Virus record (IMG/VR): IMGVR_UViG_3300027759_000110
Span: 1-56,727 of that record
DNA: 56,727 nucleotides
Reading direction: 5' to 3' (one strand)
Origin: a virus
Lineage: Duplodnaviria > Caudoviricetes
A program made the position numbers and the translations under genes. The notes below the pieces were generated by a model. That model was not told the origin of the DNA, ran no database searches, and saw only the letters and a list, made by a program, of their open reading frames with translations. Shown piece by piece: positions 1 to 43,761 of this stretch; the first letter of the stretch is position 1; each line of letters starts with the position of its first letter.

Positions 1-1604
1 TTAGTAAACCTCCTCCTCCCCCTCCTCCTCCAGAGCAAGAAATGGAGATGTATCAGACGGGGATTGAAGGCGAGAGCCAAACACCAACATACGGCTACAG
101 GCCAAAGGCTTCGGCAGCACCACCACCACCTCCTCCTCCTCCTAATCAAGAGATGGAGATGTACCAAACAGGTATTGAAGGTGAGAGTCAGTTAGCAACC
201 TATGGTTATAGACCAGTATCTCCTGCGCCAGCTAGTTTTTTAAGTGGCAATGCTCCTGTTGAGCCTAAAGCACCAGATAGTATTGCCTATGAAGACAATC
301 CTTTCATGTTTAATGATGTAGCACAATTATCTTCACCACTTGGAGAAATTGTGGGACAAGCACCAGTAGGACTCGCTCCAAATAGCATCAGCAATGACGC
401 TTATGAAAATGATCCAGCTTATTGGGATAGAGTGATGGCAGACGCAAAAAACGTTGGAATGAATCCTGCACCTGCGCCACAACCTATTCCTACACCTGTT
501 ACTCAAACACCAGTAACACCACAGCCTGCACCAACACCACCTCCTGCGCCTGTGGCTGTAGCACCTCCACCTGTGGCGGCAACCCCTGTGGCTGCCCCTC
601 TTGAGCCTGTGGGAACACCTGCTCCTGTGGCGGCTACACCTGCACCTACACCTGTGGCGACACCCGCACCAGCAACACCAACCCCGACTGCGAGTCCAAC
701 TATGGCAACAGCAACTACATCCAACATTGACCCAACAATTCAACCATATTTATCTTATGGTTTATCAGAAGCCCAAAAGCTATACCAAGGCGGTGGGCCT
801 CAGTACTATGGTGGTCAGACTTATGTAAGCCCCTCACAAGCCACTCAAACTGGTTTACAGGCTTTGGAGCAACGTGCCACTCAGGGTAGCCCCTTAACTG
901 GTGCGGCTCAAGGTCAACTGCAAAGTACCATTCAGGGTAACTACCTAAGTGGAAACCCTTTCTTCCAAGGTGCGTTTAATCCTGCGGCACAGGCGGCTGA
1001 AGCTAAGTTCAAGTCATCATTGGGTGACATTGGTTCTGCGGCTTCTAAGGCTGGTCGTTATGGCTCTGGTGCTATGTCTACCATGCAACAAGGCGCTAGT
1101 GGTCAGTTTGCCAAGACTTTGGCTGATACGGCTGGAACTCTGGCTTACCAGAACTATGAGTCAGAGCGTGGCAGACAACAAGCGGCTACGATGGCTGCAC
1201 CTCAAATGGCTCAAGCTGATTACGCTGATATTCAGAATCAACTCAAAGCTGGTCAGATGCGTGAAGGCTATACAGGCGCACAACAGCAAGCTGACATCAA
1301 CAAGTTCAACTTCCAGCAAACCCAACCACAACAAAACCTGACTAACTTCTTGTCTGGTGTTTATGGCAATCCATTAGGTAGACAGCAAATGTCTGCTGGT
1401 GGCGGTCAAGCTGGCCCATCAGGTTTCCAGAATCTCTTAGGTACTGCGGCTACTCTTGGTGGTCTTTATAAAAACATTGGTGGCGCACAGGGTGTATCTC
1501 AGATTGGTAACTGGTTAACTGGTGGTGGCTCTAGTATTCCTAGTGCATATAACGCTGCGGCAAATTATGCGGCTACATCTCCAACTGGTTGGTTGGATTT
1601 CTAA
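1..1604 (+). CDS. Ejection/DNA-transfer protein (P22 gp7-like C-terminal part) with Pro-rich N-terminal extension; 5'-truncated by the window
   Basis: Frame is open upstream of the ATG at 42. From 702 (MATATTSNIDPTIQPYLSYGLSEAQKLYQ...GRYGSGA) the protein is G/Q/A-rich like podoviral pilot/ejection proteins. First of a three-gene series preceding a tail fibre. Confidence 0.6.
   Translation, partial: SKPPPPPPPPEQEMEMYQTGIEGESQTPTYGYRPKASAAPPPPPPPPNQEMEMYQTGIEGESQLATYGYRPVSPAPASFLSGNAPVEPKAPDSIAYEDNPFMFNDVAQLSSPLGEIVGQAPVGLAPNSISNDAYENDPAYWDRVMADAKNVGMNPAPAPQPIPTPVTQTPVTPQPAPTPPPAPVAVAPPPVAATPVAAPLEPVGTPAPVAATPAPTPVATPAPATPTPTASPTMATATTSNIDPTIQPYLSYGLSEAQKLYQGGGPQYYGGQTYVSPSQATQTGLQALEQRATQGSPLTGAAQGQLQSTIQGNYLSGNPFFQGAFNPAAQAAEAKFKSSLGDIGSAASKAGRYGSGAMSTMQQGASGQFAKTLADTAGTLAYQNYESERGRQQAATMAAPQMAQADYADIQNQLKAGQMREGYTGAQQQADINKFNFQQTQPQQNLTNFLSGVYGNPLGRQQMSAGGGQAGPSGFQNLLGTAATLGGLYKNIGGAQGVSQIGNWLTGGGSSIPSAYNAAANYAATSPTGWLDF
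42..215 (+). repeat. MEMYQTGIEGESQ..TYGYRP peptide repeat, copies 1-2 (starts 42 and 153)
   Basis: Direct reading; homologous copies at 17093 and 17366. Confidence 0.9.
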
Positions 1605-1614
1605 GGAATAAATC

Positions 1615-3018
1615 ATGGCAGGACTATTAGACATTTTTGGCACTAGCGGTCAAGACACAATGGGTCTTCTGGGGATGTCTCCAGAGGATATTGGTCGTAG
1701 CCGTGACGAAGCACAAGCCCAAGCACTTTACGCATTAGCAGGTCGTCTGTTTAAAGGCGGTAGTGGTGCATCGTCTGTTTTAGAGGGCTTACAGCAAGGT
1801 CAGCAAGCCTACAGAACCGCTATGCAAGGTGGTCTGCAAGAGCAATTGCAAAGAGCACAACTTCAAGAAATGCTTAAAAAGAAGCAACTTGAAGAACAAC
1901 AGAAAAAAGATGAATTGATGGCTAGACAATTGTTTATGCGTGGCTATCAACCTGCTGTTGCTGGTAAAGAATCTATGCCTATTGAGGAAGATGGCAGATT
2001 TATTGGTGATTCACAAGGTATTGCTGCTAAACCTGCTAGGTTTGATATTGGCTCAATTGCTCCTGAACTAATGGCTATTGGACCTGCTGGTCAGGCTCAA
2101 CTTAAAACAGGTCTTGAACTTCAAAAGTCAATGGCTGGTGAAACATTCAAACTTGGTGAAGGTGAGAAGCAATATCAACGTAATCCTCTTACTGGTGAAA
2201 TTACTGAAGTTGCGGCTGGTGCACCAAAGCGTGAGCCAGTACCTACATCAATTGCTGAATACAATTTAGCAAAAGCTCAAGGATTTGAAGGTACTTTGTT
2301 AGATTATGAAAAATCTAAAAAGGGATTTACATATCAAGACGTTGGCAATGCAATTATTCAATTAGATGCAAATGGAAAAGAAGTTTCACGCATAACTAAA
2401 GGTCGTGCGCCAGAAGGCCCTGTAAGTTTCCAAGCTATTGAAACTGACCAAGGATTGATGGCGTTTAATCCAAAGACATATCAAATGACTCCTGTTATGG
2501 GTGCTGATGGTAAGCCATTAACTAAGTCTGGTAAGCCAACTGAAGGTGAAACTAATGCGGCTGGATTTGCATCTCGGATGGTTGCTGCAAATGCAATCAC
2601 ATCTAAATTAGCCTCAGGCAATGTTCCTAAAACAATAGAAGCAATTTCAGGTGTTATTCCTTTAATTGGCAAAGCAATTCCAGAAGTTATCCCTCAGGGT
2701 ATTGGTGGATTATCTCCAGAACGCAGACAATACTTACAAGCGGCTAATAACTTTATTCGTGCTAACTTGCGTAAGGAATCAGGCGCAGCAATTGGTGCTG
2801 ATGAGTGGACTGCTGAGTTTATTAACTACTTCCCACAGTACAACGATGATGCACAAACAATTAAGCAGAAAGAAATTTTCCGTAACATTCTGACTCAAAA
2901 CATGGTTGCTGCTGGCGGTAAGTCATACAAAGCACCAAGCATGACAGCACCTGAGTCAATGACTGATGCTTACGGACTAAATCCAAGATTGCGTGACTCT
3001 TTGCGTGGAGGTCAGTAA
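1615..3018 (+). CDS. Ejection/DNA-transfer protein (gp20-like position)
   Basis: 467 aa, AAGGA RBS, MAGLLDIFG start, C-terminal NFIRANLRKESGAAI...YFPQ motif seen in phage internal virion proteins; synteny. Confidence 0.55.
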   Translation: MAGLLDIFGTSGQDTMGLLGMSPEDIGRSRDEAQAQALYALAGRLFKGGSGASSVLEGLQQGQQAYRTAMQGGLQEQLQRAQLQEMLKKKQLEEQQKKDELMARQLFMRGYQPAVAGKESMPIEEDGRFIGDSQGIAAKPARFDIGSIAPELMAIGPAGQAQLKTGLELQKSMAGETFKLGEGEKQYQRNPLTGEITEVAAGAPKREPVPTSIAEYNLAKAQGFEGTLLDYEKSKKGFTYQDVGNAIIQLDANGKEVSRITKGRAPEGPVSFQAIETDQGLMAFNPKTYQMTPVMGADGKPLTKSGKPTEGETNAAGFASRMVAANAITSKLASGNVPKTIEAISGVIPLIGKAIPEVIPQGIGGLSPERRQYLQAANNFIRANLRKESGAAIGADEWTAEFINYFPQYNDDAQTIKQKEIFRNILTQNMVAAGGKSYKAPSMTAPESMTDAYGLNPRLRDSLRGGQ

Positions 3019-5054
3019 TGGCTTACGAAAATGTTGAGCGTATCCGTAAAAACCTTATCACAATGGTTGATAAGAACGCACCTGTTGATGATATTAACAA
3101 ATACCTAAAAGAAGAAGGATTCACTCAAGAATCTTTTGTTAAAGCACTAGATCTTGTTAAAAAATCTGGTGGTAAGACTGCTGAGTTTGGCGCAGGTCGA
3201 TCATTGGCTCAAGGTGCTACATTTGGTTTTGCTGATGAACTTGAGGCACTAACAAAGTCACTTGCGGGTCAAGGTACTTATGAACAAAACTTAGCGGCAC
3301 TTGAACTTGCTAAACAAAGGTATGGTCAAGAAAATCCTAAGACTGCATTGGCTACTGAGATTGCAGGTGGATTGCCATACGCATTATTACCATTTTTAGG
3401 AACTGCTCGTTATGCACAAATGGCTAGAGAAGCATCTCCATTGGTTCGTGCGGGAGTTACGTCTGGGGCCTCTGCTGTTACAGGCGCAATTACTGGCGCA
3501 CTCGGTGGTGCTGGTGCTGCAGGGGTTGGTGAGCGTATGGCTGGCGCACAAGCTGGTGGTGCATTGGGTGGTTTAGTTGGTGGTGCTGCACCTGCGGTTA
3601 CCAAGGGCATTGGAATGGCTGGAGGTAAAGTAGTTGATGTAACTAGCGGAATTCCTGTTGTTCAGCAAGTTGGTAAGGTTGTTGGGTTGGCAACTGGTCA
3701 AAGTGTTGACTATGCTAATCGTGCAAAAGCTAAGTTATTAGAGGCTTTGTATCGTGATAAGGTAAGCCCTGCTGATTTAGAAAAGATGATTCTTGCTTCT
3801 GCTAATTTAGAGAGAACAATTACTGGTACTACCAAGCCAGTAGGAATTGTTGATATTGCTGGTGAAAATGTAAGGTCACTTGCTGATGTTGCTCAGAAGT
3901 ACCCAAGCACAGCGAGACAGACTGCTAAGACAGCACTTGAAGAACGAGCCGCAGGTCAGGGTGAGCGTATTCAAGGCGACATTTCAAAGTACCTTGGTGG
4001 CTTTACAGACCCATTTGAATACACAACAGCAATTGCTCAACGGCAACAACAAGTATCATCTCCGCTTTACCAAAAAGCATACGCTTATGGTGAGGTAACA
4101 AACCCTAAGGTTCTTAAATTTTTAGAACTTCCTCAATTCAAAAAGGCGGCTAAAGAAGCTCAAGATTTGCTTGCGGCTGAAGGTCGTTCTGTAGATATGT
4201 CTATGCCTACAGTAGAGGTTTTAGATCAAGTTAAACGTGGTCTTGATGTTTTAATTAAAAAAGAAACAGACCCATTTGGAAAGATTACTGATCTTGGTCG
4301 TATCTATAAAAATAAGAAAAATGAATTTTTGGCTGAGTTAGATACTGCTGTTCCTGACTTTGGTAGGGCTAGAGCCGCATTTGCTGGTGAAGCTGAATTG
4401 CTTGATGCGACAAAGCTAGGAAAAGACTTTTATAAACAGACTGCGGCAGAAGCCAATCGTACATTTGCCAAGTTGTCTCCATCTGAGCAAGAGGCTTACA
4501 AAGTAGGTGCTTTAGATGCTGTAAAAGAAAAAATTACAACTGCTAAAGATACTGCTGATATTCGTAAGCGCATATTTGGTTCACCAGCAGAGCGTGATCG
4601 TGTTTCGTCACTATTCCCTGATACTGATACTTTCAAGCAATTTGAAAAAGACATGATGACTGAATCAATGATGCGTAAGACTCAAGAGAAAATCTTGGGT
4701 AACTCTGCAACATTTGAGAGGCAAATTGCTGGTCAGGCTTTAGAAGCAGAGCCTAGCTTTATTGGTCAAATGATTGAACAGGGCCCACTCAGGGGAACTA
4801 TGGGTTACTTGAAAGCACAGGGTCAAGGTGTTGCTGGTCAAACAGCAGAGGAACTTGGCCCAATGTTATTTAAACTTGGTGACCCAAGAGCAAATCTTCA
4901 AACATTAAAAGCCTTGAGTGCTTATGAGAAATACTTGCTTGATTTGGAAGCCAAAAAAGCTGCTGGTTTAACTGGTGCATCTACAATGACAGGATTGCTA
5001 GACACAGAAAAACCTTATCGTATAGATTTAACTGGAATGGCTAACCCCGACTAA
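3018..5054 (+). CDS. Ejection/DNA-transfer protein (gp16-like position)
   Basis: 678 aa, TAATG overlap with the previous gene, GRSLAQGATFGFADE motif and a Gly/Ala hydrophobic stretch typical of podoviral injection proteins. Confidence 0.6.
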   Translation: MAYENVERIRKNLITMVDKNAPVDDINKYLKEEGFTQESFVKALDLVKKSGGKTAEFGAGRSLAQGATFGFADELEALTKSLAGQGTYEQNLAALELAKQRYGQENPKTALATEIAGGLPYALLPFLGTARYAQMAREASPLVRAGVTSGASAVTGAITGALGGAGAAGVGERMAGAQAGGALGGLVGGAAPAVTKGIGMAGGKVVDVTSGIPVVQQVGKVVGLATGQSVDYANRAKAKLLEALYRDKVSPADLEKMILASANLERTITGTTKPVGIVDIAGENVRSLADVAQKYPSTARQTAKTALEERAAGQGERIQGDISKYLGGFTDPFEYTTAIAQRQQQVSSPLYQKAYAYGEVTNPKVLKFLELPQFKKAAKEAQDLLAAEGRSVDMSMPTVEVLDQVKRGLDVLIKKETDPFGKITDLGRIYKNKKNEFLAELDTAVPDFGRARAAFAGEAELLDATKLGKDFYKQTAAEANRTFAKLSPSEQEAYKVGALDAVKEKITTAKDTADIRKRIFGSPAERDRVSSLFPDTDTFKQFEKDMMTESMMRKTQEKILGNSATFERQIAGQALEAEPSFIGQMIEQGPLRGTMGYLKAQGQGVAGQTAEELGPMLFKLGDPRANLQTLKALSAYEKYLLDLEAKKAAGLTGASTMTGLLDTEKPYRIDLTGMANPD

Positions 5055-5066
5055 GGACTAACATGG

Positions 5067-5555
5067 CTACTCAAGTCTTGCAAAACTCCCATGTAATTCC
5101 AATGCGGCTTTTTTGTAGGCTTGACTAGCTTCTTCAGCAGTTTTGTAACAACCCAAACTAATACATTTGTAATTAACTGTAATTCTTGCAACAAACCTAT
5201 TATTTTGATTATGAAGATAAACCCCTTTAAATCCAGTAGTGTTGCTTGTTCTCAGTTTTGTGTTTCTGTTGTTTTGAGCGTTGTTTGCTTCACGCAGATT
5301 AGAAGCCAAGTTGTTTGAACGATTGCCATCTATATGATCTATCTGTTCAGGCCAATAACCATTAAACATCATAAAAATGATTCTATGAACGTAGTGCTTC
5401 TTTTTGTTAATTGTTACTTCACAGTAGCCGTTGCTTTTTTTAAGTCGGCTGGCTTGTTTGCCTATGAGTTTATTTCCTCTGCGATCAACTTTCCAAAAGA
5501 GATGACCATCACGATACTCGAAAAGTTCGTGAAGAAATTGCTGTGTGATTTCCAT
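5067..5555 (-). CDS. HNH homing endonuclease with C-terminal AP2-like DNA-binding domain
   Basis: HRIIF...IDHIDGNRSNNLASNLRE HNH motif; NTTGFKGVY...LGCYKTAEEASQAY AP2-like tail. Start placed at ATG 5555 (GGTGGA upstream) rather than 5585. Confidence 0.9.
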   Translation of the reverse strand: MEITQQFLHELFEYRDGHLFWKVDRRGNKLIGKQASRLKKSNGYCEVTINKKKHYVHRIIFMMFNGYWPEQIDHIDGNRSNNLASNLREANNAQNNRNTKLRTSNTTGFKGVYLHNQNNRFVARITVNYKCISLGCYKTAEEASQAYKKAALELHGSFARLE

Positions 5556-5564
5556 ATATCCACC

Positions 5565-5665
5565 AAAGAAAAACCCCTTGAACATTCGCAGTACCAGTGC
5601 AAATATCCAAGGGGTAGCCAGTGGCTTAGAACTCTAAAGGTCTGGTACACCCAAGGTCTAAGCCT
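5565..5665 (-). ncRNA. Two-hairpin leader with complementary loops (GTACCAG / CTGGTAC); the second hairpin is terminator-like
   Basis: Minus strand GGCTTAGA...TCTAAGCC stem, then ACCCCTTGGATATTTGCA-CTGGTAC-TGCGAATGTTCAAGGGGT followed by TTTTCTTT. Confidence 0.55.
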
Positions 5666-5671
5666 ACCGAT

Positions 5672-5700
5672 ATTCTTTCATAAACAAATTGCCTTGTCAA
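5672..5700 (-). promoter_or_regulatory. Sigma70-like promoter for the HNH-AP2 gene
   Basis: Minus strand TTGACA-17 bp-AAGAAT with TG extension. Confidence 0.55.
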
Positions 5701-5743
5701 CCACCAAGGCTTAAAATCAGATTAACCGAACTAGGAGTCCAAA

Positions 5744-7330
5744 ATGGCCCGTACGAAGATTAGCGAATTTAGCGCAACACCAGCAAGCAATACCGATATT
5801 GATAGTATTAACATCAGTGAGGGCTGTGCACCCTCTGGTATCAATGACGCTATCCGTGAATTAATGAGCCAACTGAAGGACTTTCAGACAGGTGCTGTTG
5901 GTGACTCGTTTAACGGCCCTGTAGGAACGACTACGGCTGCTGCTGGTGCGTTTACTACGCTAGCGGCTTCTGGTGCTGTAACCCTGTCTGGTGGTACTGC
6001 CAATGGTGTTACTTATTTAAACGGCTCTAAAGTCCTTACAAGTGGTTCTGCGCTTACTTTTGATGGTACTAATTTAAATACTACTGGTAACTTTCAAATT
6101 GGCGGCACAAAGATGCTGAGTAAGATTACTGGTGATTCTTACATTTGGAATAACACATCTGCATTGAATTTTGTTAGTAGCGATGGAAATACTGTTCAAT
6201 TAAAACTTGACTCCTCTGGCAACCTTGGATTAGGAGTTACTCCTAGTGCTTGGAGTGGAATGAAAGCATTTCAGTTGGGTGACGGCACATTTGCAATGTC
6301 TTCTGATGGAGCAGGTGCAGGTGATGGCTCTCTCACTTGGAACGGCTATTACAACGGCACAAATTGGATTTATGGCTATACAGGTGGCGGTTCTAGTAGA
6401 TATCGCCAGACTGAATTAGGTCACGCTTGGTTTTATGCCGCATCAGGTACAGCAGGAAACGCCATTACCTTTACTCAGGCAATGACTCTGGATGCTAACT
6501 CCAATTTAATTGTCAATGATACTGCGGTTCAATACTCATCAAAGCTGTATGTCAATGGTGCTTTTGCCGCTCGTAATGGCGGTGTGGACGGAACATATGC
6601 GGATGCTTTTACTGCGGGATACAACGGGAACTATAACGAAAAAAATGTTATTCAGACTCAAGTAGGCGGGGCTTCAGGATTTAGATTTAAAACTTCAAAT
6701 GGAGGTGGTTCTGCGTCAACCACCACAACCCTTGATCTAGCAATAAATGGAACTATTTTTTATATTAATGGATCGGAAAAAGCCCGTATAGACTCAAGCG
6801 GTAACTTGCTGGTGGGGACTACAAATTCAGCAGAAAATGCTGGAGCTGGCTTTAAGTTGCTAACTAGCGGTCAAGTTGCTTGTATTACTACAGCAAACAC
6901 AACAAATGCTCAAATGTCAACTTACGAGTTGTACTCAACAGGTGCTAGTGCTTTTAGATTTTATGTTGGTGCTGGTGGAACTATTTTTGCCACATCTACA
7001 ACTATCACCGCTATTTCTGACAAACGCCTAAAAGAAAACGTCCGAGATTTGGATGATGGTCTTGATGTGGTGATGGCATTGAAGCCTCGCAAGTTTGATT
7101 GGAAAGAAGGCAAAGGCGCTAATATCAAAAATGCTCGTGGTTTTATTGCTCAAGAGTTTGAGACAGTATTGCCAGACATGATTGAAACATGGCGTGACCC
7201 TGCGCCTGAAGGTGAAGAACCATATAAAGCAATCAATGCAAACTTGATTCCAACATTGGTCAAAGCCATCCAAGAACAACAAGCAATCATTGAATCACTC
7301 AAGGCACGTTTGGATGCCGCTAACCTTTAA
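5744..7330 (+). CDS. Tail fibre with C-terminal intramolecular chaperone (peptidase S74) domain
   Basis: N-terminal anchor NTDIDSINISEGCAPSGINDAIRELMSQLK; repeated LDSSGNL/IDSSGNL fibre motifs; SDKRLKENV...GFIAQE...LVKAIQE S74 signature; AGGAG RBS. Confidence 0.88.
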   Translation: MARTKISEFSATPASNTDIDSINISEGCAPSGINDAIRELMSQLKDFQTGAVGDSFNGPVGTTTAAAGAFTTLAASGAVTLSGGTANGVTYLNGSKVLTSGSALTFDGTNLNTTGNFQIGGTKMLSKITGDSYIWNNTSALNFVSSDGNTVQLKLDSSGNLGLGVTPSAWSGMKAFQLGDGTFAMSSDGAGAGDGSLTWNGYYNGTNWIYGYTGGGSSRYRQTELGHAWFYAASGTAGNAITFTQAMTLDANSNLIVNDTAVQYSSKLYVNGAFAARNGGVDGTYADAFTAGYNGNYNEKNVIQTQVGGASGFRFKTSNGGGSASTTTTLDLAINGTIFYINGSEKARIDSSGNLLVGTTNSAENAGAGFKLLTSGQVACITTANTTNAQMSTYELYSTGASAFRFYVGAGGTIFATSTTITAISDKRLKENVRDLDDGLDVVMALKPRKFDWKEGKGANIKNARGFIAQEFETVLPDMIETWRDPAPEGEEPYKAINANLIPTLVKAIQEQQAIIESLKARLDAANL

Positions 7331-7342
7331 AAGGAAAACATC

Positions 7343-7645
7343 ATGTCAGTAACTTGGAAAATCTCAACCCTTGATCGTGACGTAGCAACAGGCTATGTAA
7401 CTACCGCCCATTGGACAGCATCAGCAGTAGACGGAGATCACTCTGCCTCTGCCTATGCAACAGTCTCATGGCCTGAAGGCACTCCTGCCATTCCTTACGC
7501 ATCCCTCACAGAAGCCACAGTCCTTAATTGGGTGTGGGAATCTGTTGACAAGGAAGCTACTGAGTCTGCTTTGGCGGCTCAGATTGCTTTGCTGAAGAAT
7601 CCTGTAAAAGCCTCTGGCACACCTTGGGCAACACCAATAGTTTAA
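7343..7645 (+). CDS. Tail fibre-associated small protein
   Basis: 100 aa directly after the fibre; IPYASLTEATVLNWVW...GTPW pattern common downstream of phage fibres. Confidence 0.55.
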   Translation: MSVTWKISTLDRDVATGYVTTAHWTASAVDGDHSASAYATVSWPEGTPAIPYASLTEATVLNWVWESVDKEATESALAAQIALLKNPVKASGTPWATPIV

Positions 7646-7660
7646 ACAGGAAGCTGCCAC

Positions 7661-8350
7661 ATGACTGCCTTTTATGTTTATGAACATACCCGTAAAGATA
7701 CGGGGGCGGTCTTTTATGTTGGCAAAGGTCATGGTAAACGGCATTGCTCTAAACTCAACAGAAACCAATATTGGCATAATGTTGTGAACAAAGCTGGAGG
7801 ATTTGATTCCCGTGTTGTTTACGAAGACCAGTCTGAAGAATTAATATTGCTTGCTGAAATAGAGAAAATTAACCAGTTGCGGATGCTAGGTGTAACTCTT
7901 GTTAACTTGACTGATGGCGGTCAGGGCATCACAGGATTAAAACACTCAGAGGAAAGCAAACGGTTAATGAGCCAAAAGCTCAAGGGCAAAAGCCACAAGC
8001 ACACGCCTGAGTCAATTGAAAAAATTAGGCAAGCAAATACGGGTGTTGTTTTTTCTGATGAACGTAAAGAGAAGTTGCGGCAAAAGGCTTTAGGCAGAAA
8101 GATGCTACCTCATGTAAGAGAAGCTCTTAAGCAAAGAATGAAGTCTTTTAAACAATCAGAAGAAACCAAAGAGCATTTGAGGCAAGTAAACCTTGGTCGC
8201 AAACATACGCCAGAAACTTTAATAAAAATGAGTGCATGGCAAAAAGATAGACCAAAGTTAATTTGCCCACATTGCAACAAGGCCGCTAACGTTAACATGG
8301 CTAAACGTTGGCATTTTAATAACTGTAAACTGAAAGAACAAAATGGCTAA
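7661..8350 (+). CDS. GIY-YIG-type homing endonuclease with NUMOD3 repeats
   Basis: FYVYEH...FYVGKG...LVNLTDGGQG catalytic domain; repeated KHSEESKRLMS / KHTPESIEKIR / KHTPETLIKMS NUMOD3 motifs; C-terminal CPHC. Confidence 0.85.
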   Translation: MTAFYVYEHTRKDTGAVFYVGKGHGKRHCSKLNRNQYWHNVVNKAGGFDSRVVYEDQSEELILLAEIEKINQLRMLGVTLVNLTDGGQGITGLKHSEESKRLMSQKLKGKSHKHTPESIEKIRQANTGVVFSDERKEKLRQKALGRKMLPHVREALKQRMKSFKQSEETKEHLRQVNLGRKHTPETLIKMSAWQKDRPKLICPHCNKAANVNMAKRWHFNNCKLKEQNG

Positions 8351-8570
8351 AGACACGAAAAATGCCGTTTCAATCGACGGGCAAGAATATCCAGTAGATG
8401 ATTTAACGCCGCAACAGCAAGCCCTGCTTTCGCACGTTGCCGACTTAGATCGTAAATTAGACTCTGCCCGATTTTCTGTAGATCAGCTCTCAGTGGGAAG
8501 AAACGCCTTCTTTGAGTTACTCAAGCAAGCACTGGCAAAGCCTGAAGAGGCTGTGTCGGACGTAGAGTAA
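8343..8570 (+). CDS. Hypothetical protein (coiled coil, fibre-region)
   Basis: 75-aa ORF, VSIDGQEYPVDDLTPQQQ pattern typical after phage fibre genes. Confidence 0.55.
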   Translation: MAKDTKNAVSIDGQEYPVDDLTPQQQALLSHVADLDRKLDSARFSVDQLSVGRNAFFELLKQALAKPEEAVSDVE

Positions 8571-8590
8571 CCGGAGAACGCTTATGAACT

Positions 8591-8875
8591 ATGCGCTTGT
8601 TTTTTGTATTACTCATCTGCGTTGTTTTTTGGGCGAGTGCAAAGAGCTTGTGCATAGTTTCGGATTTTTATGGGCTGAGCTGGATAGGTGAACCAACCCT
8701 GCGCCACACGGAATTGTCCAAGTGGCTGACAGTAAACGGTGATTCATGTGGCTCACAAGAGTTGGCTGGAATTTGGAACAACCTGTCTATGTGGGCAGGG
8801 GTTGCAGATAGCGCAGAGTTAAGGGCAAAGGTACTGTATTACTACGCAAGGGCGCGAGAAAGGGAAGGAAAATGA
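8591..8875 (+). CDS. Hypothetical secreted/membrane protein
   Basis: Hydrophobic signal-like N-terminus; ATGA overlap with the next gene. Confidence 0.5.
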   Translation: MRLFFVLLICVVFWASAKSLCIVSDFYGLSWIGEPTLRHTELSKWLTVNGDSCGSQELAGIWNNLSMWAGVADSAELRAKVLYYYARAREREGK

Positions 8876-9108
8876 TTGAAACAATTAAGCTTTTCCCGAC
8901 AGTGCAAGCGTCAGGGTATCCCGACAAGCACGATCTTGCCCAAGCCAAACTAGAAAAACAACAACAAGTAAACAAAACGCTTGAGGTGGCTAAGCAAAAG
9001 CAGACGGAATTACAAGACATTGGGTTTGAGATTTACTGCAAGAAGGTAGTTCAAGAGCGGCTCCGCATGGAGATATTCACAAATCGTAAGCTGGATATTT
9101 ATGTATGA
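8872..9108 (+). CDS. Hypothetical protein
   Basis: 78-aa ORF with ATGA overlaps on both sides. Confidence 0.5.
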   Translation: MIETIKLFPTVQASGYPDKHDLAQAKLEKQQQVNKTLEVAKQKQTELQDIGFEIYCKKVVQERLRMEIFTNRKLDIYV

Positions 9109-9368
9109 CCAAGAAACCACCACAACCCGACACGAAAGAAAAGCTGACGTTATACGTCACTCTGATGGTAAGCACGACATTGTGCATCTCTGTTTTGGGC
9201 ATGGTATTTGCCTTTCTCCTTGGTTTGTGGGCCAAGGAAGTGGACAACGCAGAGATATTCAAGATGATTTCACCCGCTTTTTCTACTCTTATCGGCGGCA
9301 TGATTGGGTTCCTGTCTGGTATCAAACTCATGCAGAATGAAGACACTAAACCAAAGGATCCCAAATGA
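9105..9368 (+). CDS. Two-TM membrane protein in the lysis cassette
   Basis: Two hydrophobic helices; translationally coupled to the holin. Confidence 0.55.
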   Translation: MTKKPPQPDTKEKLTLYVTLMVSTTLCISVLGMVFAFLLGLWAKEVDNAEIFKMISPAFSTLIGGMIGFLSGIKLMQNEDTKPKDPK

Positions 9369-9778
9369 TCGGTCTAGACGCAATCCTTAATATTGGCGGT
9401 AAGCTCATTGACAAGCTTATACCGGATCCTGAAGCCAAGGCGCGGGCGCAACTGGAGCTTACCAAGCTGGCGCAGGACGGTGAACTAACTAAGATGGCCA
9501 ACGAAACTAAACTGTATGAGACTGAGCAGAACAATCTGACCCAGCGCGTTCAGGCCGACATGGGCAGTGATTCATGGCTGTCTAAGAACATCCGCCCCAT
9601 GACGCTGATCTTCCTGCTTGTAGCCTATTCCGGCTTTGCCATTGCCTCTATATTTGAATACGAAACACGTGGTGCATACGTGGAATTGCTTGGGACTTGG
9701 GGCATGGTGGTAATGAGTTTTTATTTTGGAGGCCGTACCGCTGAAAAAATGATGGACAAGTTTGGGAATAAGAAATGA
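9365..9778 (+). CDS. Holin (3TM / GTA-holin-like)
   Basis: GKLIDKLIPDPEAK...DSWLSKNIRP...FYFGGRT motifs with two C-terminal TM segments; adjacent to the endolysin. Confidence 0.75.
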   Translation: MIGLDAILNIGGKLIDKLIPDPEAKARAQLELTKLAQDGELTKMANETKLYETEQNNLTQRVQADMGSDSWLSKNIRPMTLIFLLVAYSGFAIASIFEYETRGAYVELLGTWGMVVMSFYFGGRTAEKMMDKFGNKK

Positions 9779-10212
9779 ACCTCACACCACACTTTACGCT
9801 TGATGAACTTACCGCCTCAGAAGCCGCAGAGCGCAACGGATGGGACAACACCCCAAATGAAGCAGAACTTGCCAACCTCAAACGCCTTGCCGCCTTCCTT
9901 GAGGAGGTCAAAACTGTACTGGGCGGACGACCAATTATGGTTAACTCAGCTTTTCGCAATAAGCAAGTCAATGACTCTGTGGGCAGTAAAGATAGCTCTC
10001 AGCATCGCACTGGTTGTGCTGTGGACATCCGAGTACCTCAACTAACTCCCGATCAGGTGGTTAAAGCCATCATTGAGTCTGGGCTTCCCTATGACCAAGT
10101 CATACGTGAGTTTGATCGCTGGACGCATTTAAGCATTCCAAACACGCCAGATGCAGCTCCAAGAAAGCAAGCGTTAGTGATTGATAAATTGGGCACACGG
10201 CTTTATGCTTGA
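9775..10212 (+). CDS. Endolysin, peptidase M15A family
   Basis: MNLTPHFTLDELTAS start; NSAFR, SQHRTGCAVD and WTHLS zinc-ligand motifs. Confidence 0.88.
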   Translation: MNLTPHFTLDELTASEAAERNGWDNTPNEAELANLKRLAAFLEEVKTVLGGRPIMVNSAFRNKQVNDSVGSKDSSQHRTGCAVDIRVPQLTPDQVVKAIIESGLPYDQVIREFDRWTHLSIPNTPDAAPRKQALVIDKLGTRLYA

Positions 10213-10242
10213 TGCATCCCTAAATTGATGGGAAAATAAGCC

Positions 10243-12384: not shown

Positions 12385-12728
12385 GTTTGATTGTTACGTC
12401 AGAGTTTGAGCTTCAAAGGATTCAACCTCCTGCTTTGCCATTGGCAACAGATGACTACAGCAAGGCTTATCAAGATCAACTAAACAATGTGTTGCGTTTG
12501 TACTTCAACCGCATCCAGAACATTCTTAATCAGTTGGAATCTAATGGGGTTCAGCCGCCACTGACTAACTATACCGTGACCACATTACCCAGTGCAGTCA
12601 CTTCAGGCAAGGGCGCTAGATCTTTTGTTACTGATGCTTTGGCTCCTGCGTTTGGGGCTACCGTTGCAACTGGCGGAGCTGTTGCAGTCCCTGTATATTC
12701 AGACGGAACAAATTGGAAGGTGGGATAA
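12381..12728 (+). CDS. Virion structural protein (tail needle/short fibre-like)
   Basis: PALPLAT...DQLNNVLRLYFN N-terminus; C-terminal VPVYSDGTNWKVG fibre-like motif. Confidence 0.5.
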   Translation: MSLIVTSEFELQRIQPPALPLATDDYSKAYQDQLNNVLRLYFNRIQNILNQLESNGVQPPLTNYTVTTLPSAVTSGKGARSFVTDALAPAFGATVATGGAVAVPVYSDGTNWKVG

Positions 12729-12730
12729 AC

Positions 12731-13114
12731 ATGACTGCAGACGAAATCCTTGAAATAGACGCTCAGCGAAACCATGAACCCGGCACTGAAGCTGGTCATT
12801 TACGCGCCATGATTAATGACCAATTGCGCAAACAAGGACATATTGTCCAACAAGGCGACACGTTGATTGTGTTCTCTAATGCTGATGGCGATGCGGATGT
12901 TGAATATCACTGCTTTAATGCAGATACACCACCAAACTTAGCTGCAAATGTAATGAAGTTCTTTGAGTTAGCTAAGAAGCTTGGTTACAAGACTGCCACC
13001 ACACCTTACGAAAATCCTAAAGTTTCCGAGTTGTTTAAACAATTTGTTGCGAAAAGATACAAGGTTGACATTAAGCGCAAGGATGGCCGATATGAAGCGA
13101 AAGCGAGGCTGTAA
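12731..13114 (+). CDS. Hypothetical protein
   Basis: Probable start ATG 12731; TAATG coupling to the next gene. Confidence 0.5.
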   Translation: MTADEILEIDAQRNHEPGTEAGHLRAMINDQLRKQGHIVQQGDTLIVFSNADGDADVEYHCFNADTPPNLAANVMKFFELAKKLGYKTATTPYENPKVSELFKQFVAKRYKVDIKRKDGRYEAKARL

Positions 13115-14481
13115 TGGGATTTGTTAGAAAAATTGGTCGTAAGATTGACAAAGAAATTCTCCAGCCTATCAAGCATACGGTTGAAGCGGTACTTGATGAC
13201 CCCAGAAAGTTAGCTATGGTGGCGCTCTCGGTCTTTGCACCGGGTGTTGGTACTGCTATTGGTAGCGCCATGGGCCTTAGTGGTACTGCGGCGGCAATCA
13301 TAGGCAATACAGCAGTCAATACGGTTCTAAATGGCGGAGATGTTAAGTCGGCAATCTTTGCCGCAGCCATTCCTGTTGTAGGTCGAGAGATGGCTGGCCT
13401 TGCCTCTAATGCATTTATTGATGCTGGCATGGATAAAGCTCTTGCTGATACTGCCGGTAACGTAACTTCTCGTGGTTTACTGGCCGCAGCACAAGGAAAA
13501 GATCCAGTTAACGCTCTTATTTCTGGTGGTTTAAACGCCGGAACAGACGCAGTTCTTAACCAAATACCGGGGTTTGAAGACTTAGATCCATCTATAAAGA
13601 AGATGACTACCCGCGCAGTGGCTAATACATTGGTTGGAAACAATGCGCTATCACCGCAGGATGCCATCAATGCCGCACTAAACATTGGTATGAAGGCTGT
13701 AGATCGGACTACGGATGAAGAAGGTAACTACATTGAGAATTACTTCCGTCCGGGTGGTGCTGGGTATATTGACCCAGAGAACCTAGAGGCAACGGTCAAG
13801 CAGGACGAAGGCGATGGCGGGTTCATGAGTCAGTTTAAGTCGTATTTGCCTCAAACCCCCGCTGAATTTCTTGCTGTTGAAAACCCAACACCAGCACCAT
13901 CTGAGCCTCCAGTAGAGCAACCAATGCCAAGTCCAGATGATGACTTTGCCCCAACATTGCCTTCAGTAGAACAGCCGATGCCAAGTCCGGATGATGACTT
14001 TGTGCCAACGGTTCCACCTTCTGAGGGTGGTGGTGAAAACGTATTTGATCCCACGTTTGGTGGAACACTTCCTTTACCCACTGGTGGGGATGGAACTCCC
14101 GGCGGTGCTTCTAAATCGCCCACTAGAACAACTCCCGGAGCTAAGCCCGCCATCCCCGGTGCAAAGACGGGTGCTACTGGAAACCCTGCGGTTGATGCCA
14201 TTACCAATTTAGCCAACCAACAGCAACAATACCAAAACTCTGTGTTAAACATGATGATGAATGACAAGAATGAGGTTGCTAATATAAAATCATTCAAAGA
14301 TCTTTATGGTGGGGATTTGTTTGGCGGAAGCTATGTGCCGCCTTCTGCGCTTGGTATGCCTGCTGGAGGCAATGTAATGATGCCCCAACAAAATCAAGAT
14401 GAACAAGATAATGATTTTTTTGATGGTGGTCACGTAGATGATATTGACGTTGACGTTTTACTACGAATTTTGAGGAGTTGA
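13114..14481 (+). CDS. Internal virion/ejection-like protein
   Basis: Basic MGFVRKIGRK start, hydrophobic Gly/Ala segment (FAPGVGTAIG), Pro/acidic low-complexity C-half. Confidence 0.5.
   Translation: MGFVRKIGRKIDKEILQPIKHTVEAVLDDPRKLAMVALSVFAPGVGTAIGSAMGLSGTAAAIIGNTAVNTVLNGGDVKSAIFAAAIPVVGREMAGLASNAFIDAGMDKALADTAGNVTSRGLLAAAQGKDPVNALISGGLNAGTDAVLNQIPGFEDLDPSIKKMTTRAVANTLVGNNALSPQDAINAALNIGMKAVDRTTDEEGNYIENYFRPGGAGYIDPENLEATVKQDEGDGGFMSQFKSYLPQTPAEFLAVENPTPAPSEPPVEQPMPSPDDDFAPTLPSVEQPMPSPDDDFVPTVPPSEGGGENVFDPTFGGTLPLPTGGDGTPGGASKSPTRTTPGAKPAIPGAKTGATGNPAVDAITNLANQQQQYQNSVLNMMMNDKNEVANIKSFKDLYGGDLFGGSYVPPSALGMPAGGNVMMPQQNQDEQDNDFFDGGHVDDIDVDVLLRILRS
13912..14001 (+). repeat. Tandem coding repeat VEQPMPSPDDDF (54-nt period, 2 copies)
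   Basis: Copies start at 13912 and 13966 and differ at synonymous positions. Confidence 0.85.
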
Positions 14482-16799
14482 TGATGGCAACAAAATATGG
14501 TTCAGAGGGCGGAGTCGAGATTCCTGACTCAATGCTAGTGGGGTATGGCGGCACAGCAGAGAACGGTTATATCTCTCCCGGCGGTAATGAAAGCGTATTT
14601 GACCCCACTTACGGCGGCTCAATGCCAATTACAAATACCGGCGGCGCTACTAATAATAGATCTGATATTACCAATGCTATCAACAACCTTTTTGGAAGCA
14701 ATTTATCTGGAGCAGAGTTAGCAAAACGAGCCGCTGTTCTTGGTGGTGGTTTGGCTGGTGGCCTTGGCGCATTCTCCTCTGGAACGCAGAAAGTTGGATA
14801 TCAAGGTGGTATTCCAAAGTTCACAGCTAATCGTGAAATGACAAAAGCTCCTCCCGCTGGTAGCCGTCCCGGTGCTGGTGGTGTTAATTATGGTGGTGAT
14901 GTTACTTACACTCCAACTGGTGTATCTTCTGGTGGATCGTCTGGTGGCGGATCTTCCGGCGGTGGCTCTGCTTTAGGAGACATAGCAAAAGTAGCTGGCG
15001 GTGCTGGCTTGGCCGCTTTACTTGCTAACTATCTTGGTAAATCTGGTGGTGCATCTGGTGGTTTAGATGCTATTTTGAAAGCCATTAGAAATCCTTCTTC
15101 TGGTAACGTACCAGTAAGAAATCAAGGTGGCGACACTCGTGGCGAATTAACTACACCCGGGGGTGACTACGCGGGCAGAGATGAATTTGATGGAATTGAT
15201 GCTCAAATTATAGCCAATGAAAATGATCTTCAATCGCCACCCCTGTTAAACGACACAGAAGTTGATGCTGAGCTTGATCGTCTTCGTGAACCAGAGTACA
15301 CAATGCCAATGTATATAGAAGAATCTCCGATGTTTAACCCTTCATTCTACGAAGACCTACTTGAGTACGCTAAGGGTGGCAGCGTACCACGCTATTTACA
15401 AGGGGAGACTGACGGTATGGCTGACAAAATCCCAGCCCGTATTGGAAAAGACCAACCTGCCGCGCTTAGCCATGGTGAGTTTGTTGTCCCTGCGGATGTT
15501 GTGTCTCATCTTGGTAACGGTAACTCTGATGCCGGAGCCAAGAAGCTGTACAGCATGATGGACAAGATCCGTCAAGCTCGTACCGGCACAAAGAAACAAG
15601 GCAAAAAGATCAACCCCGACAGCTTTATGCCCGGTGGTTTGGCTTCTGCTTATGCCAATGGTGGCTCAGTTATGAAATTTGCAGGCCCAACAGGAAGTTT
15701 AGTCCCTTCTGGTTCAACAGGATCAGAGCAAACACTTGCAAGCTGGACTGGTGACTATGTGCCTAATATGCTTGGTAAAGCTGAAGCTTTGGCTAGTGCT
15801 CCATACCAACAGTATGGCGGCCCATTATCGGCTGGTGCATCTGGCCTTCAACAGCAAGCATTCCAAGCTGCGGGTAATCTGTCCGTTCCTAGCAGTGTGG
15901 GTCAAGCCACGCAAACCGCTGGTGACATTGCCGCTAAAGCACAGGGCATTAGCTACGATCCAACCAAGTTTGATAATCAGTTTAAAGCACCTGATAAGTA
16001 TCAAAACACCAACTTTACTTCTGGCACTTTTGGTCAAGATCAAGCTCAGCAGTACATGAATCCGTACTTGCAAGCTTCTTTGAATCCTCAGTTGGAAGAA
16101 GCCCGTCGCCAGTCAAACATTAGTGAGCAGGCAAATAAAGCCGCAATGACCAAGGCCGGTGCGTTTGGTGGTGGCCGTAGTGCCATTTTGACCGCAGAGA
16201 ACCAACGTAATCTTGGAACTAACCTTGCCGGTATTACTGGCAAGGGCTACGACACTGCGTATACCAATGCTATGGGTCAGTTCAATGCTGACCAAGCCCG
16301 TAATATGCAAGCACAGCAGGCATCTGAACAGTCTAAGCAGTTTGGTGCTGGTCAGGGCATGACTTCCGCACAACAAGCCGCTCAGTACGGTCAGGCCGCT
16401 CAACAAGCCTCCGAGCAATCCAAACAGTTTGGTGCAAACTTGGGTCTGCAAGGTCTTCAGACTGGTCTTCAAGCCGCTAAAACTCAAGGTGATTTAGGTA
16501 TTTCTGGTGGTCAATTGGGCTTGGCTCAGCTACAACAACAGTCTGCTCTGGGTGCTCAACAGCGTGGCATTGAAGCTGAAGGTATTGCCGCAGACAAGGC
16601 CGCATTTGAAGAAGCTCGTGCAAACCCATACAAGATGCTTCAGTTTCAGCAGTCTATGCTTCAGGGCTTGCCAATTTCTGCAACCAACTACTCTATGCCT
16701 GAGCAAGATGCTCTTACAAAGGCGGCTGGTGGTGCAACGACTGTGAATAAGTTATTGGAAACTTTGGGACTTGGAGGGTCTACACCCCCAAAGAAGTGA
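14478..16799 (+). CDS. Multi-module ejection/pilot-like protein
   Basis: 773 aa; GETDGMADKIPA...LSHGEFVVPADVV module; C-terminal QQYMNPY...AGAFGGGRS gp7-like Q/G/A-rich domain. Confidence 0.6.
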   Translation: MMMATKYGSEGGVEIPDSMLVGYGGTAENGYISPGGNESVFDPTYGGSMPITNTGGATNNRSDITNAINNLFGSNLSGAELAKRAAVLGGGLAGGLGAFSSGTQKVGYQGGIPKFTANREMTKAPPAGSRPGAGGVNYGGDVTYTPTGVSSGGSSGGGSSGGGSALGDIAKVAGGAGLAALLANYLGKSGGASGGLDAILKAIRNPSSGNVPVRNQGGDTRGELTTPGGDYAGRDEFDGIDAQIIANENDLQSPPLLNDTEVDAELDRLREPEYTMPMYIEESPMFNPSFYEDLLEYAKGGSVPRYLQGETDGMADKIPARIGKDQPAALSHGEFVVPADVVSHLGNGNSDAGAKKLYSMMDKIRQARTGTKKQGKKINPDSFMPGGLASAYANGGSVMKFAGPTGSLVPSGSTGSEQTLASWTGDYVPNMLGKAEALASAPYQQYGGPLSAGASGLQQQAFQAAGNLSVPSSVGQATQTAGDIAAKAQGISYDPTKFDNQFKAPDKYQNTNFTSGTFGQDQAQQYMNPYLQASLNPQLEEARRQSNISEQANKAAMTKAGAFGGGRSAILTAENQRNLGTNLAGITGKGYDTAYTNAMGQFNADQARNMQAQQASEQSKQFGAGQGMTSAQQAAQYGQAAQQASEQSKQFGANLGLQGLQTGLQAAKTQGDLGISGGQLGLAQLQQQSALGAQQRGIEAEGIAADKAAFEEARANPYKMLQFQQSMLQGLPISATNYSMPEQDALTKAAGGATTVNKLLETLGLGGSTPPKK

Positions 16800-17617
16800 C
16801 CCCCTCCAATTCTTCGGATTCTGGCGGGGGCCCTAGTTTAGGTGGTGGATTGGCGGCGGCGGCTGTGGCCGCGCCGTTTATGGCATCGGCGTTTAGTACT
16901 CCAGACCCACAACCTCAAGCCCCAGCTACGCCTGTGTCAATGTATTCACCTGAGCCTCCAGCTCCTGCGCCAGTTCCAGATGCGCCTGCTCAACCAAGGT
17001 CGGCGTATGATCCTCCGCCGCCTCCACCTCCGCCGCCACCTCCTCCTCCGCCACCTCCTGCGCCAGTGGCTCCACCTCCTCCAGAGCAAGAAATGGAGAT
17101 GTACCAAACAGGTATTGAGGGCGAGAGTCAGTTAGCAACTTATGGTTACAGACCAAAAGCTCCTGTAGCACCACCACCACCACTTGCACCTCCATCGGGT
17201 TCCGCTGCATCTGGGTACAAAGGCCCAGCTAGATTAAATTCTTCTAGGGGTCTGGGTGACATGTTCTGGGAAGGTGAATTTGATTTTTCAGGCATTGATT
17301 TGCCGCCTGTTCCCGAAGCTCCTCCTCCTCCTGCGCCTACTCCAACTCCTCCTCCACAACAAGAGATGGAAATGTATGAGACAGGTATTGAGGGTGAGAG
17401 CCAAATCCCAACTTATAGCTATAGGCCAAAGGCTCCCGTAAATACAAAAGATAGGCTCCGTGAAATGGAGACTGGAAATTATAATAACCCAAACCTTGGT
17501 TTAGGTATACCCAGAATCGGTGGCGGCCAATCTAGAAATGATAGACGCGCATACGCAGCATACGCCAATGGCGGATTAGTCGATCTTCTCCGTAGACACA
17601 TGCAGAAATATCAATAA
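16796..17617 (+). CDS. Pro-rich low-complexity protein carrying two MEMY[QE]TGIEGESQ repeats
   Basis: GTGA overlap with the upstream stop; 16-Pro run; ends with YANGG motif like its neighbours. Confidence 0.55.
   Translation: MTPSNSSDSGGGPSLGGGLAAAAVAAPFMASAFSTPDPQPQAPATPVSMYSPEPPAPAPVPDAPAQPRSAYDPPPPPPPPPPPPPPPPAPVAPPPPEQEMEMYQTGIEGESQLATYGYRPKAPVAPPPPLAPPSGSAASGYKGPARLNSSRGLGDMFWEGEFDFSGIDLPPVPEAPPPPAPTPTPPPQQEMEMYETGIEGESQIPTYSYRPKAPVNTKDRLREMETGNYNNPNLGLGIPRIGGGQSRNDRRAYAAYANGGLVDLLRRHMQKYQ
17093..17434 (+). repeat. MEMY[QE]TGIEGESQ..TY[GS]YRP peptide repeat, copies 3-4 (starts 17093 and 17366)
   Basis: 17093-17155 matches 153-215 at 59 of 63 nt. Confidence 0.9.
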
Positions 17618-42783: not shown

Positions 42784-42793
42784 AAGACCTCTA

Positions 42794-43753: not shown

Positions 43754-43761
43754 GATTTTCC

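Follow-up and report, generated by a model that had tools for sequence, protein, structure and literature searches.

A linear virus record from IMG/VR (IMGVR_UViG_3300027759_000110, Caudoviricetes; 56,727 bp, CheckV completeness 92%), the whole of which we refer to as the window, encodes four copies of a conserved peptide motif of 21 amino acids (aa), MEMY[QE]TGIEGESQxxTY[GS]YRP. Two copies reside in a proline-rich arm at the N-terminus of a protein that resembles the P22 ejection protein gp7. The other two reside in a second proline-rich arm, which lies in the −1 reading frame at the end of the gene for a 773-aa protein and is probably joined to that protein by programmed ribosomal frameshifting. 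Purifying selection acts on the motif peptide, and the motif is one of several types of short peptide module that recur in both kinds of arm. The interpretation that we favour, although tentatively, is that the motif is a short linear binding motif, mounted on polyproline spacers as an interchangeable module of injected proteins and directed at a partner in the host.

Four copies of the motif and selection on the encoded peptide

All four copies lie on the + strand. Copies 1 (MEMYQTGIEGESQTPTYGYRP, positions 42-104) and 2 (MEMYQTGIEGESQLATYGYRP, 153-215) belong to the open reading frame (ORF) 3-1604, and copies 3 (MEMYQTGIEGESQLATYGYRP again, 17093-17155) and 4 (MEMYETGIEGESQIPTYSYRP, 17366-17428) belong to the ORF 16796-17617. 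A peptide search of the record returned exactly these four, which are the same ones listed in a preliminary description of this DNA. A proline run followed by xQE stands ahead of every copy, with eight proline codons at 9-32 (+) before copy 1 and another eight at 120-143 (+) before copy 2, and the aligned copies agree in 22 of 31 columns. When the window was searched with a degenerate pattern of the first 11 motif codons, four matches were obtained, and 100 shuffles yielded no match.

The preliminary description had argued for selection on the peptide from copies 2 and 3, which differ at 4 of 63 nucleotides (nt) by changes that are all synonymous (GAA/GAG, GGT/GGC, ACC/ACT and TAT/TAC). We counted the proportions of synonymous (pS) and non-synonymous (pN) differences by the Nei-Gojobori method over 25 codons (the 21 of the motif, the xQE ahead of it and one further codon). 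The pair of copies 2 and 3 has a pS of 0.37 at 94% nucleotide identity. The other five of the six pairs differ at 15-21 of 75 nt, nearly all of the differences being synonymous, and have pS values of 0.78-1.0, which amounts to saturation, versus pN values of 0.05-0.14. Non-synonymous changes are confined to the two variable positions (TP, LA or IP), to Q/E and G/S, and to the flanks. Additional copies from other contigs (P0005 and P0138) retain MYxTGIEGESQxxTYxY, and one of them has RQM instead of MEM and EP instead of RP. Because synonymous sites are near saturation while the amino acids are retained, the conserved entity is the peptide and not the DNA, and the earlier claim that purifying selection acts on the motif peptide is upheld. 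That the repeat is instead conserved as DNA or RNA, for example as a recombination site or a regulatory element, is hardly credible. The 94% nucleotide identity of copies 2 and 3 is what such an element might be expected to leave, but it is contradicted by the other five pairs, whose synonymous sites have diverged so far around an unchanged peptide.

The first carrier, a P22-gp7-like protein with an optional arm

Copies 1 and 2 are carried by P0001 (3-1604, +), a gene for a P22-gp7-like ejection protein that is cut at its 5′ end and consists of a proline-rich N-terminal arm (3-701) and a core (702-1604). Residues 235-488 match phrog_4287, ‘DNA ejection protein’ (E 6.6e-10), and a Pfam scan of P0001 gave no hit. 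Since the window starts inside the gene, about 45 leader residues are absent. A complete orthologue of 560 aa is located between the tail genes and the tail fibre in another contig (L007). This protein begins with a leader of about 45 aa, followed by eight prolines, copy 1, seven or eight prolines, copy 2, the sequence FLSGNAP, a long linker of P, A, T and V, and finally the core.

At least 598 viral contigs carry the P0001 core, and the best 80 loci were taken for counts of arms. The short form prevails in 52 of these, where a stop codon occurs no more than 22 codons upstream of the Met that matches position 702 of the window. An in-frame N-terminal extension of at least 50 aa is present in 26, of which 21 are proline-rich, and the remaining two loci are cut by a contig end. 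The proposal that the core starts at 702 and that the arm is an N-terminal add-on is therefore well supported, given that this very Met is the start of the gene in 52 of 80 loci, and the prevalence of the short form among relatives indicates that the add-on is optional.

The cassette block of P0001 is 98% identical to that of its relatives and the core is 86% identical, and the linker between them is unrelated when the window is compared with L007. In another relative (P0006), the same cassette follows a different leader. The P0001 region has a mosaic pattern in which the cassette is the unit. A separate observation is that 5 of the 80 loci (L105, L112, L114, L115 and L117) carry a second kind of N-terminal extension on the P0001-like core that is not built of proline (EISSMI.DPS.FD[FY]SK[FY]TP.QLELM...).

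A second arm in the −1 reading frame

The second carrier, P0003 (14478-16799, +), is a 773-aa protein of the internal-virion type that belongs to a very large metagenomic family; of 8000 candidates that were scored, 4898 are homologues at E<=1e-3. P0003 matches no Pfam or PHROG family and resembles the P0001 core only marginally (BLASTP E 8e-4; hhalign probability 39%). The gene also contains an internal repeat (16311-16348 and 16398-16435, +), in which AQQASEQSKQFGA is encoded twice at 76% nucleotide identity. Copies 3 and 4 reside in an arm that occupies the −1 frame at 16787-17617 (+) and includes the listed ORF P0002 (16796-17617), which overlaps the P0003 stop codon in that frame and has no PHROG match. 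In order, the arm comprises a hydrophobic stretch rich in G, A and L, a run of 17 prolines (17009-17059), the two motif copies and a C-terminal helix.

The junction between the two frames exhibits the characteristics of a −1 frameshift site. A slippery heptamer, C_CCA_AAG (16787-16793, +), lies in the X_XXY_YYZ phase of P0003, one codon ahead of the TGA stop. A review (PMC5009743) describes this heptamer as highly shift-prone in E. coli. Six nucleotides past the heptamer there is a GC-rich hairpin with a UUCG loop (16800-16830, +; −14.7 kcal/mol), and 9 nt upstream of the heptamer there is a GGAGG sequence (16773-16777, +) that may serve as a stimulatory element resembling a Shine-Dalgarno (SD) sequence. 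In two other sequencing runs the junction is spanned by gap-free contigs (X2, 16629-17181; X4, 16761-17019), and thus the frame offset is not an insertion or deletion introduced by assembly.

We could establish where the P0003 homologue ends in 24 loci, which are the window and 23 of 26 fetched; in the other three (L031, L036 and L037) the match falls short of the C-terminus, and these were excluded. A −1-frame ORF of this kind is present in 12 of the 24 and absent in the other 12. The heptamer occurs in phase, zero or one codon ahead of the stop, in all 12 arm-bearing loci, versus none of the 12 arm-less loci when the last 40 nt are inspected. Seven of the 12 arm-bearing loci have a GGAGG that precedes the heptamer by about 9 nt. 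A hairpin, mostly with a UUCG loop, begins 4-6 nt downstream in each of four sequence variants, with energies of −14.7 (window), −18.0, −17.0 and −15.5 kcal/mol. Compared with shuffled sequences, three variants have z values of −2.2 to −2.8 and that of the window is −0.85. The consensus fold has 14 pairs, two of which show compensatory changes.

On the strength of these features, we consider it probable that programmed −1 ribosomal frameshifting makes the arm as a C-terminal extension of P0003. The predicted frameshift product would be about 1046 aa long and carry the cassette-bearing arm at its C-terminus. The preliminary description had treated P0002 as a separate ORF placed after a gp7-like gene, and the in-phase heptamer and the hairpin make it most likely that this part needs to be revised. 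It is unlikely, in our estimation, that the arm ORF encodes an independent small protein, for example one anchored in the membrane and exposed to the periplasm, that starts at GTG 16796 or at a TTG codon 39-45 nt past the heptamer. Start codons are indeed present in the arm frame, gene callers list proteins that begin MGLGLGL..., the hydrophobic N-terminal stretch could act as an anchor, and start/stop overlaps of the GTGA type are common in phages. However, the first start codon of the arm frame in 11 of the 12 loci is a TTG at +39 to +45. This codon is located within the hairpin or immediately after it, and a G-run that is separated from it by only 1 nt is poorly spaced for a ribosome-binding site. 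Further points against independent translation are the in-phase heptamer of all 12 arm-bearing loci, which have three different junction sequences, its absence from all 12 arm-less loci, the canonical spacing of the hairpins, and the conservation of the residues between the heptamer and the TTG.

Module types common to both kinds of arm

Arms are optional in both protein families, being present in 26 of 80 P0001-type loci and 12 of 24 P0003-type loci. Among relatives, the −1 arms agree with the arm of the window at their ends and vary in the middle. The N-terminal end consists of SSDSGGG, a hydrophobic stretch rich in G, L and A, the sequence ...PSYAYNPPPP and polyproline. The conserved ends can be written as SSDSGGGLGLGLAGGLAAAA... 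and ...FAKGGL[VI].LLRRR, and an alternative C-terminal end reads ...GGLVDLLRRHMQKYQ. In the window, the C-terminal end (...GGL[VI].LLRR...) starts with YANGGLV (17561-17581, +), which was picked out by invariant alignment columns and a motif scan and falls where a helix is predicted (arm residues 252-274). Proline runs in the arms extend from 17 to more than 20 residues.

We compared 10 distinct −1 arms with 23 distinct N-terminal arms (N-arms) after masking the proline runs, and three module types were each found in both. Type I is the motif described above and is present in the −1 arm of the window and in the N-arms of the window, L041 and L042 (E ~1e-19). Type II, E[FY]..MQNGFNVDDTPAYI.V.KGAAGNAAVQ with PDY[FY]AQQF.PDV[FY]SP, occurs in the −1 arms of L013, L014, L017 and L028 and in the N-arm of L039 (E 1e-21 to 6e-30). 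Type III, RDKFIPQMEMEG..GF.SF..GNA, is found in the −1 arms of L016 and L022 and in the N-arms of L061, L063 and L054 (E 5e-15 to 1e-33). The modules common to both kinds of arm have nucleotide identities of 74-90%, which suggests common descent and transfer rather than convergence. A word-based census with the arm profile recovered 26 proteins, in which the modules combine differently; type II is the commonest and type I appears in 4 of the 26.

We also examined types I and II as diverged forms of a single motif and found no support for this idea, since the type I profile reaches at best 0.4 bits on arms of types II and III versus up to 3.6 bits in shuffles. As this profile does not set types II and III apart from shuffled controls, we treat the types as separate and distinguish, by their sequences, at least three. 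In another −1 arm, from a different contig (P0134), a PT-HINT (intein-like) domain separates the modules from the conserved C-terminal end.

An AlphaFold2 model of the arm, made from an alignment of 11 sequences, has a mean predicted local distance difference test (pLDDT) score of 57 and a predicted template modelling (pTM) score of 0.17, with helices at residues 221-228 and 252-274 only. The polyproline blocks are modelled at pLDDT 80-93 and the motif blocks at 47-62. The arm thus appears to be disordered, and the model fits a linear motif carried on stiff spacers. Together with the PHROG match of P0001, it places the motif in a disordered, proline-tethered setting on virion proteins of the ejection type, in agreement with the polyproline tethers on injected proteins of the preliminary description. 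The best look-alike of P0002 in the ESM Atlas scores 0.79 and is uninformative.

A short motif, [YF]A.GG[ILS][VI], that coincides with the start of the conserved arm end occurs four times (15366, 15651, 17561 and 18031, +) in three consecutive ORFs, versus 0.14 occurrences per window in shuffles. Two occurrences are in P0003, one is at the C-terminus of the arm and one is in a 583-aa protein whose homologues have the motif too.

Distribution of the exact motif

A profile of 31 columns was searched against 1.84 billion representatives and gave four hits. Three are true clusters, one with an N-arm (P0006) and two with −1 arms (P0005 and P0008). The fourth (P0009) was rejected as a carrier of the motif because it is an unrelated Cys-rich repeat protein. 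The exact motif was found in three viral contigs and at two metagenome loci, both of which are P0001 orthologues. With three true clusters among 1.84 billion representatives, three viral contigs and two metagenome loci, we rejected a wide distribution of the exact motif. The preliminary description had the motif spreading between phages that share a host; spreading is seen for the module types, which are common to the arms of two phage groups, but the exact motif is rare.

A scan of bacterial and archaeal genome contigs for the motif gave no match. This result offers no sign of mimicry of a host protein, which had been raised as a possibility for a peptide search of bacterial proteomes. A second scan of genome contigs provided no clue to the host from prophages or metagenome-assembled genomes. 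A search of cultured phages with P0002 found no match, and the closest cultured phages have 28-31% identity over part of P0003 only.

Two phage groups meet in one contig

The two carriers belong to different groups of phages, a P0001 type with genomes of about 35 kb and a P0003 type of about 60 kb, with contigs reaching 60-65 kb. The P0001 core is absent from all 11 P0003-type records (22-83% complete), and P0003 is absent from all 14 P0001-type records, four of which are 93-100% complete at 32-37 kb. Both carriers are found together in this contig only. Positions 1-9364 of the window are collinear with the 35-kb type (L010 and L007) except for an inserted HNH-AP2 homing endonuclease gene (5067-5585), and positions 9365-56181 are collinear with the 60-kb type (G010, G001, G008 and G003). 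A tblastn search of L007 and L010 with the head genes of the window gave no hit. A 100-aa gene after the tail fibre is common to both groups, with 91% identity to L010 and 81% to G001, as are parts of the fibre, and this pattern fits a common host.

Since only this contig holds both proteins, we must allow that it is either a natural mosaic genome or a chimeric assembly of a phage of the ~35-kb type (1-9364) and one of the ~60-kb type (9365-56727), in which case the carriers would belong to two co-occurring phages. We judge a chimera to be somewhat unlikely. Its case is built on the restriction of both proteins to this one record (0 of 11 and 0 of 14 elsewhere), on the change of collinearity partners at 9364/9365, and on the observation that assemblies break at the cassette: the window and L010 begin at the same base, at ISKPPPP, and L005, which is 100% identical to positions 1-127 of the window, ends inside copy 1. 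The GC content also differs by 3-4 points between the left part (1-9364, 43-45%) and the right (47-48%), although this difference is compatible with a mosaic or a chimera alike. Conversely, the gene order fits a natural recombinant, because both groups have the order head, connectors, (trio), fibre and 100-aa gene. The switch at 9362 is on a gene boundary, where the gene for an 87-aa protein with two transmembrane (TM) segments overlaps the start of the holin gene by ATGA, as is typical of phage mosaicism, and the record is estimated by CheckV to be 92% complete. Among Logan contigs, which are a few hundred bases long, none was shown to bridge 5000-5800 or 9200-9400. Parts of 2002-4669 are uncovered in X1 and X2, which, with Logan contigs this short, decides neither for a mosaic nor for a chimera. 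In either case, the sharing of modules between both protein families stands.

Some further characteristics of this region were recorded. The interval 9105-9368 (+), especially ~9220-9340, has a summed contig depth of 130-610x in four metagenome runs, whereas the adjoining sequence has about 5x, and contigs have loose ends on either side of it. This pattern suggests that many abundant phages have a segment in common at ~9220-9340, where one half of the contig gives way to the other. Two homing-endonuclease genes are present, one of the HNH_3+AP2 type (5067-5585, −) and one of PHROG 314 (7661-8350, +). The HNH_3+AP2 gene is an insertion relative to L007, in which the 46 nt preceding it and the start of the fibre are contiguous.

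Proposed function of the modules

We propose that the 21-aa peptide represents one allele, type I, within a repertoire of short peptide modules that can replace one another in disordered, proline-rich arms. Such an arm is an optional N-terminal addition to the P22-gp7-like protein and an optional C-terminal addition, encoded in the −1 frame, to the 773-aa protein, and in the latter case frameshifting at C_CCA_AAG, assisted by the hairpin, most likely places it on a minor fraction of the molecules. Recombination would move modules between both kinds of arm and both phage groups. Each module would function as a linear binding motif held out on stiff polyproline spacers, and its partner may be a host component that is met during or just after genome ejection. 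That the arms are part of the virion and are released from it at infection is suggested by the family match of P0001, by the position of both genes among virion genes and by the 3019-aa polyvalent protein encoded nearby.

We infer that the modules bind a host factor. A host component is the most likely partner because the modules are portable between phages with unrelated head genes and related genes in the tail-fibre region, and an accessory, host-directed role fits better than a core role in assembly because many relatives do without arms. The targets suggested in the preliminary description (a decoy or inhibitor of a host sensor or protease, or a tag that binds the host envelope) are conjectures. 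A more specific version, which we regard as doubtful, is that phages of two unrelated families with the same freshwater hosts trade ‘address-label’ peptides between the arms of their injected proteins. These labels would dock onto an entry factor of the host, in the envelope or the cytoplasm, or onto a defence sensor, and −1 frameshifting would set the dose of labelled protein in each virion. In this version the arms would be a phage counterpart of the Tol and Ton boxes of colicins that evolves by the swapping of cassettes.

Several points weigh against the proposal of a host-directed binding module. Ejection of the carriers is inferred from protein family and context only, and the notion that one virion displays both carriers is uncertain, given that the two are found together in this contig only. 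The exact motif is restricted to one narrow lineage, and spreading has been seen for the module types generally. Two scans of genome contigs yielded no host. Regarding the arm on P0003, the stability of the window's hairpin does not exceed that of shuffles (z −0.85), the heptamer on its own occurs in the window about as often as expected (nine matches versus 9.9), and GTG 16796 (+9, in the window only) or TTG (in the other loci) could start a separate arm protein.

Other functions would place the partner in the phage particle or dispense with a specific partner. The modules could bind a phage protein, either as a tag for incorporation into the procapsid or as a site that is recognized or cleaved by a head-maturation protease. 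Both carriers are internal or ejection-type virion proteins, a gene resembling a fusion of a head protease and a major head protein is present at 55273-56181, and the capsid targeting sequence of T4 is a precedent for a common tag on several internal proteins. Despite this parallel, we hold a partner within the particle to be an unlikely explanation, for the same module types occur in two groups without detectable similarity of head genes (tblastn against L007 and L010), and the arm-less relatives (52 of 80 and 12 of 24) imply that the cores are packaged without arms. The motif is, in addition, internal and repeated rather than N-terminal. A cleaved N-terminal leader of the T4 type was considered separately and set aside, as the copies are internal, repeated and, in one carrier, C-terminal.

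Alternatively, the arm could be a physical tether across the envelope, in which polyproline forms the spacers, the hydrophobic stretch and the basic C-terminal helix form the anchors, and aromatic and acidic modules stick to peptidoglycan or membrane. Several features are in keeping with a tether, including arm ends that are conserved around a variable middle, proline runs of such length, polyproline that is modelled with high confidence as an extended rod, and lysis genes (a GTA-type holin and an M15 peptidase) compatible with a Gram-negative host. What a sticky spacer leaves unexplained is the near-absolute conservation of 19 of the 21 residues while synonymous sites are saturated, and likewise the existence of separate kinds of module between which the type I profile finds no link. 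We accordingly think a tether of this sort quite improbable, and return to the host-directed binding module as our preferred explanation.

Relation to known systems and implications

The P0001 core resembles the P22-type ejection proteins (gp7, PHROG 4287) in its profile match and in its location between the tail genes and the fibre in complete relatives. To our knowledge, no polyproline arm with repeated modules has been described for the gp7 family; the difference here is that 26 of 80 relatives have an N-terminal extension of at least 50 aa, 21 of them proline-rich. Extensions of phage structural proteins by programmed −1 frameshifting are exemplified by the tail chaperone G/GT of lambda and the capsid proteins 10A/10B of T7. 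P0003 shares with these a heptamer near the stop codon, a downstream hairpin and a predicted longer minor product with the same N-terminal body. It differs from them in that the carrier is of the internal or ejection type and the extension is disordered, modular and proline-rich rather than a folded domain. A search of full-text literature for proline-rich or frameshifted ejection proteins found nothing.

Colicins have disordered translocation domains with TolB and TonB boxes, and TonB itself has a proline-rich spacer. The likeness to the arms is one of working principle only, namely short conserved epitopes in long disordered or polyproline segments that thread through the envelope. The carriers described here are virion proteins, and no sequence relation is claimed. 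Phage polyvalent proteins (Iyer et al. 2017, PMC5512222) are injected multi-module proteins with shuffled parts and are similar to the arms in this respect, but their parts are folded enzymatic domains in series, whereas in the arms it is peptides of ~20-30 aa that are strung along proline linkers. Three of the elements described here are of known kinds, namely a core related to gp7, the extension of phage structural proteins by frameshifting, and a linear motif within a disordered region. What appears to be new is their combination, in which two phage groups share a repertoire of swappable modules on proline-rich arms, one group on an arm at the N-terminus and the other on an arm at the C-terminus that is probably encoded through a frameshift.

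How DNA and proteins of podoviruses pass the envelope, and what determines success on each host, is poorly understood outside a few model phages. If our proposal is correct, the arms would indicate an undescribed modular layer of host interaction whose dosage is set by frameshifting. The carriers belong to very abundant uncultured freshwater phages, as the numbers of P0001 contigs and P0003 homologues given above indicate. Given a host, the peptides are short enough to be synthesized and used directly as baits.

Other genes in the window

Two genes downstream of the −1 arm, in the same operon, a 3019-aa ORF (19419-28478, +) encodes a phage polyvalent protein with DUF7178, ART-PolyVal (ADP-ribosyltransferase) and LPD38 domains. 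The lysis genes (9365-10212, +) consist of a GTA-type holin with three TM segments (PF11351) and a Peptidase_M15_3 endolysin. In a 455-aa ORF there is a tandem duplication of 54 nt (13894-14001, +), 81% identical, by which ...PSVEQPMPSPDDDF is encoded twice. Among the early genes, one for a MoxR-type AAA ATPase (AAA_5) adjoins another for a VWA/CobT_C protein (42112-45186, −), and the two constitute a CobS/CobT-like pair.

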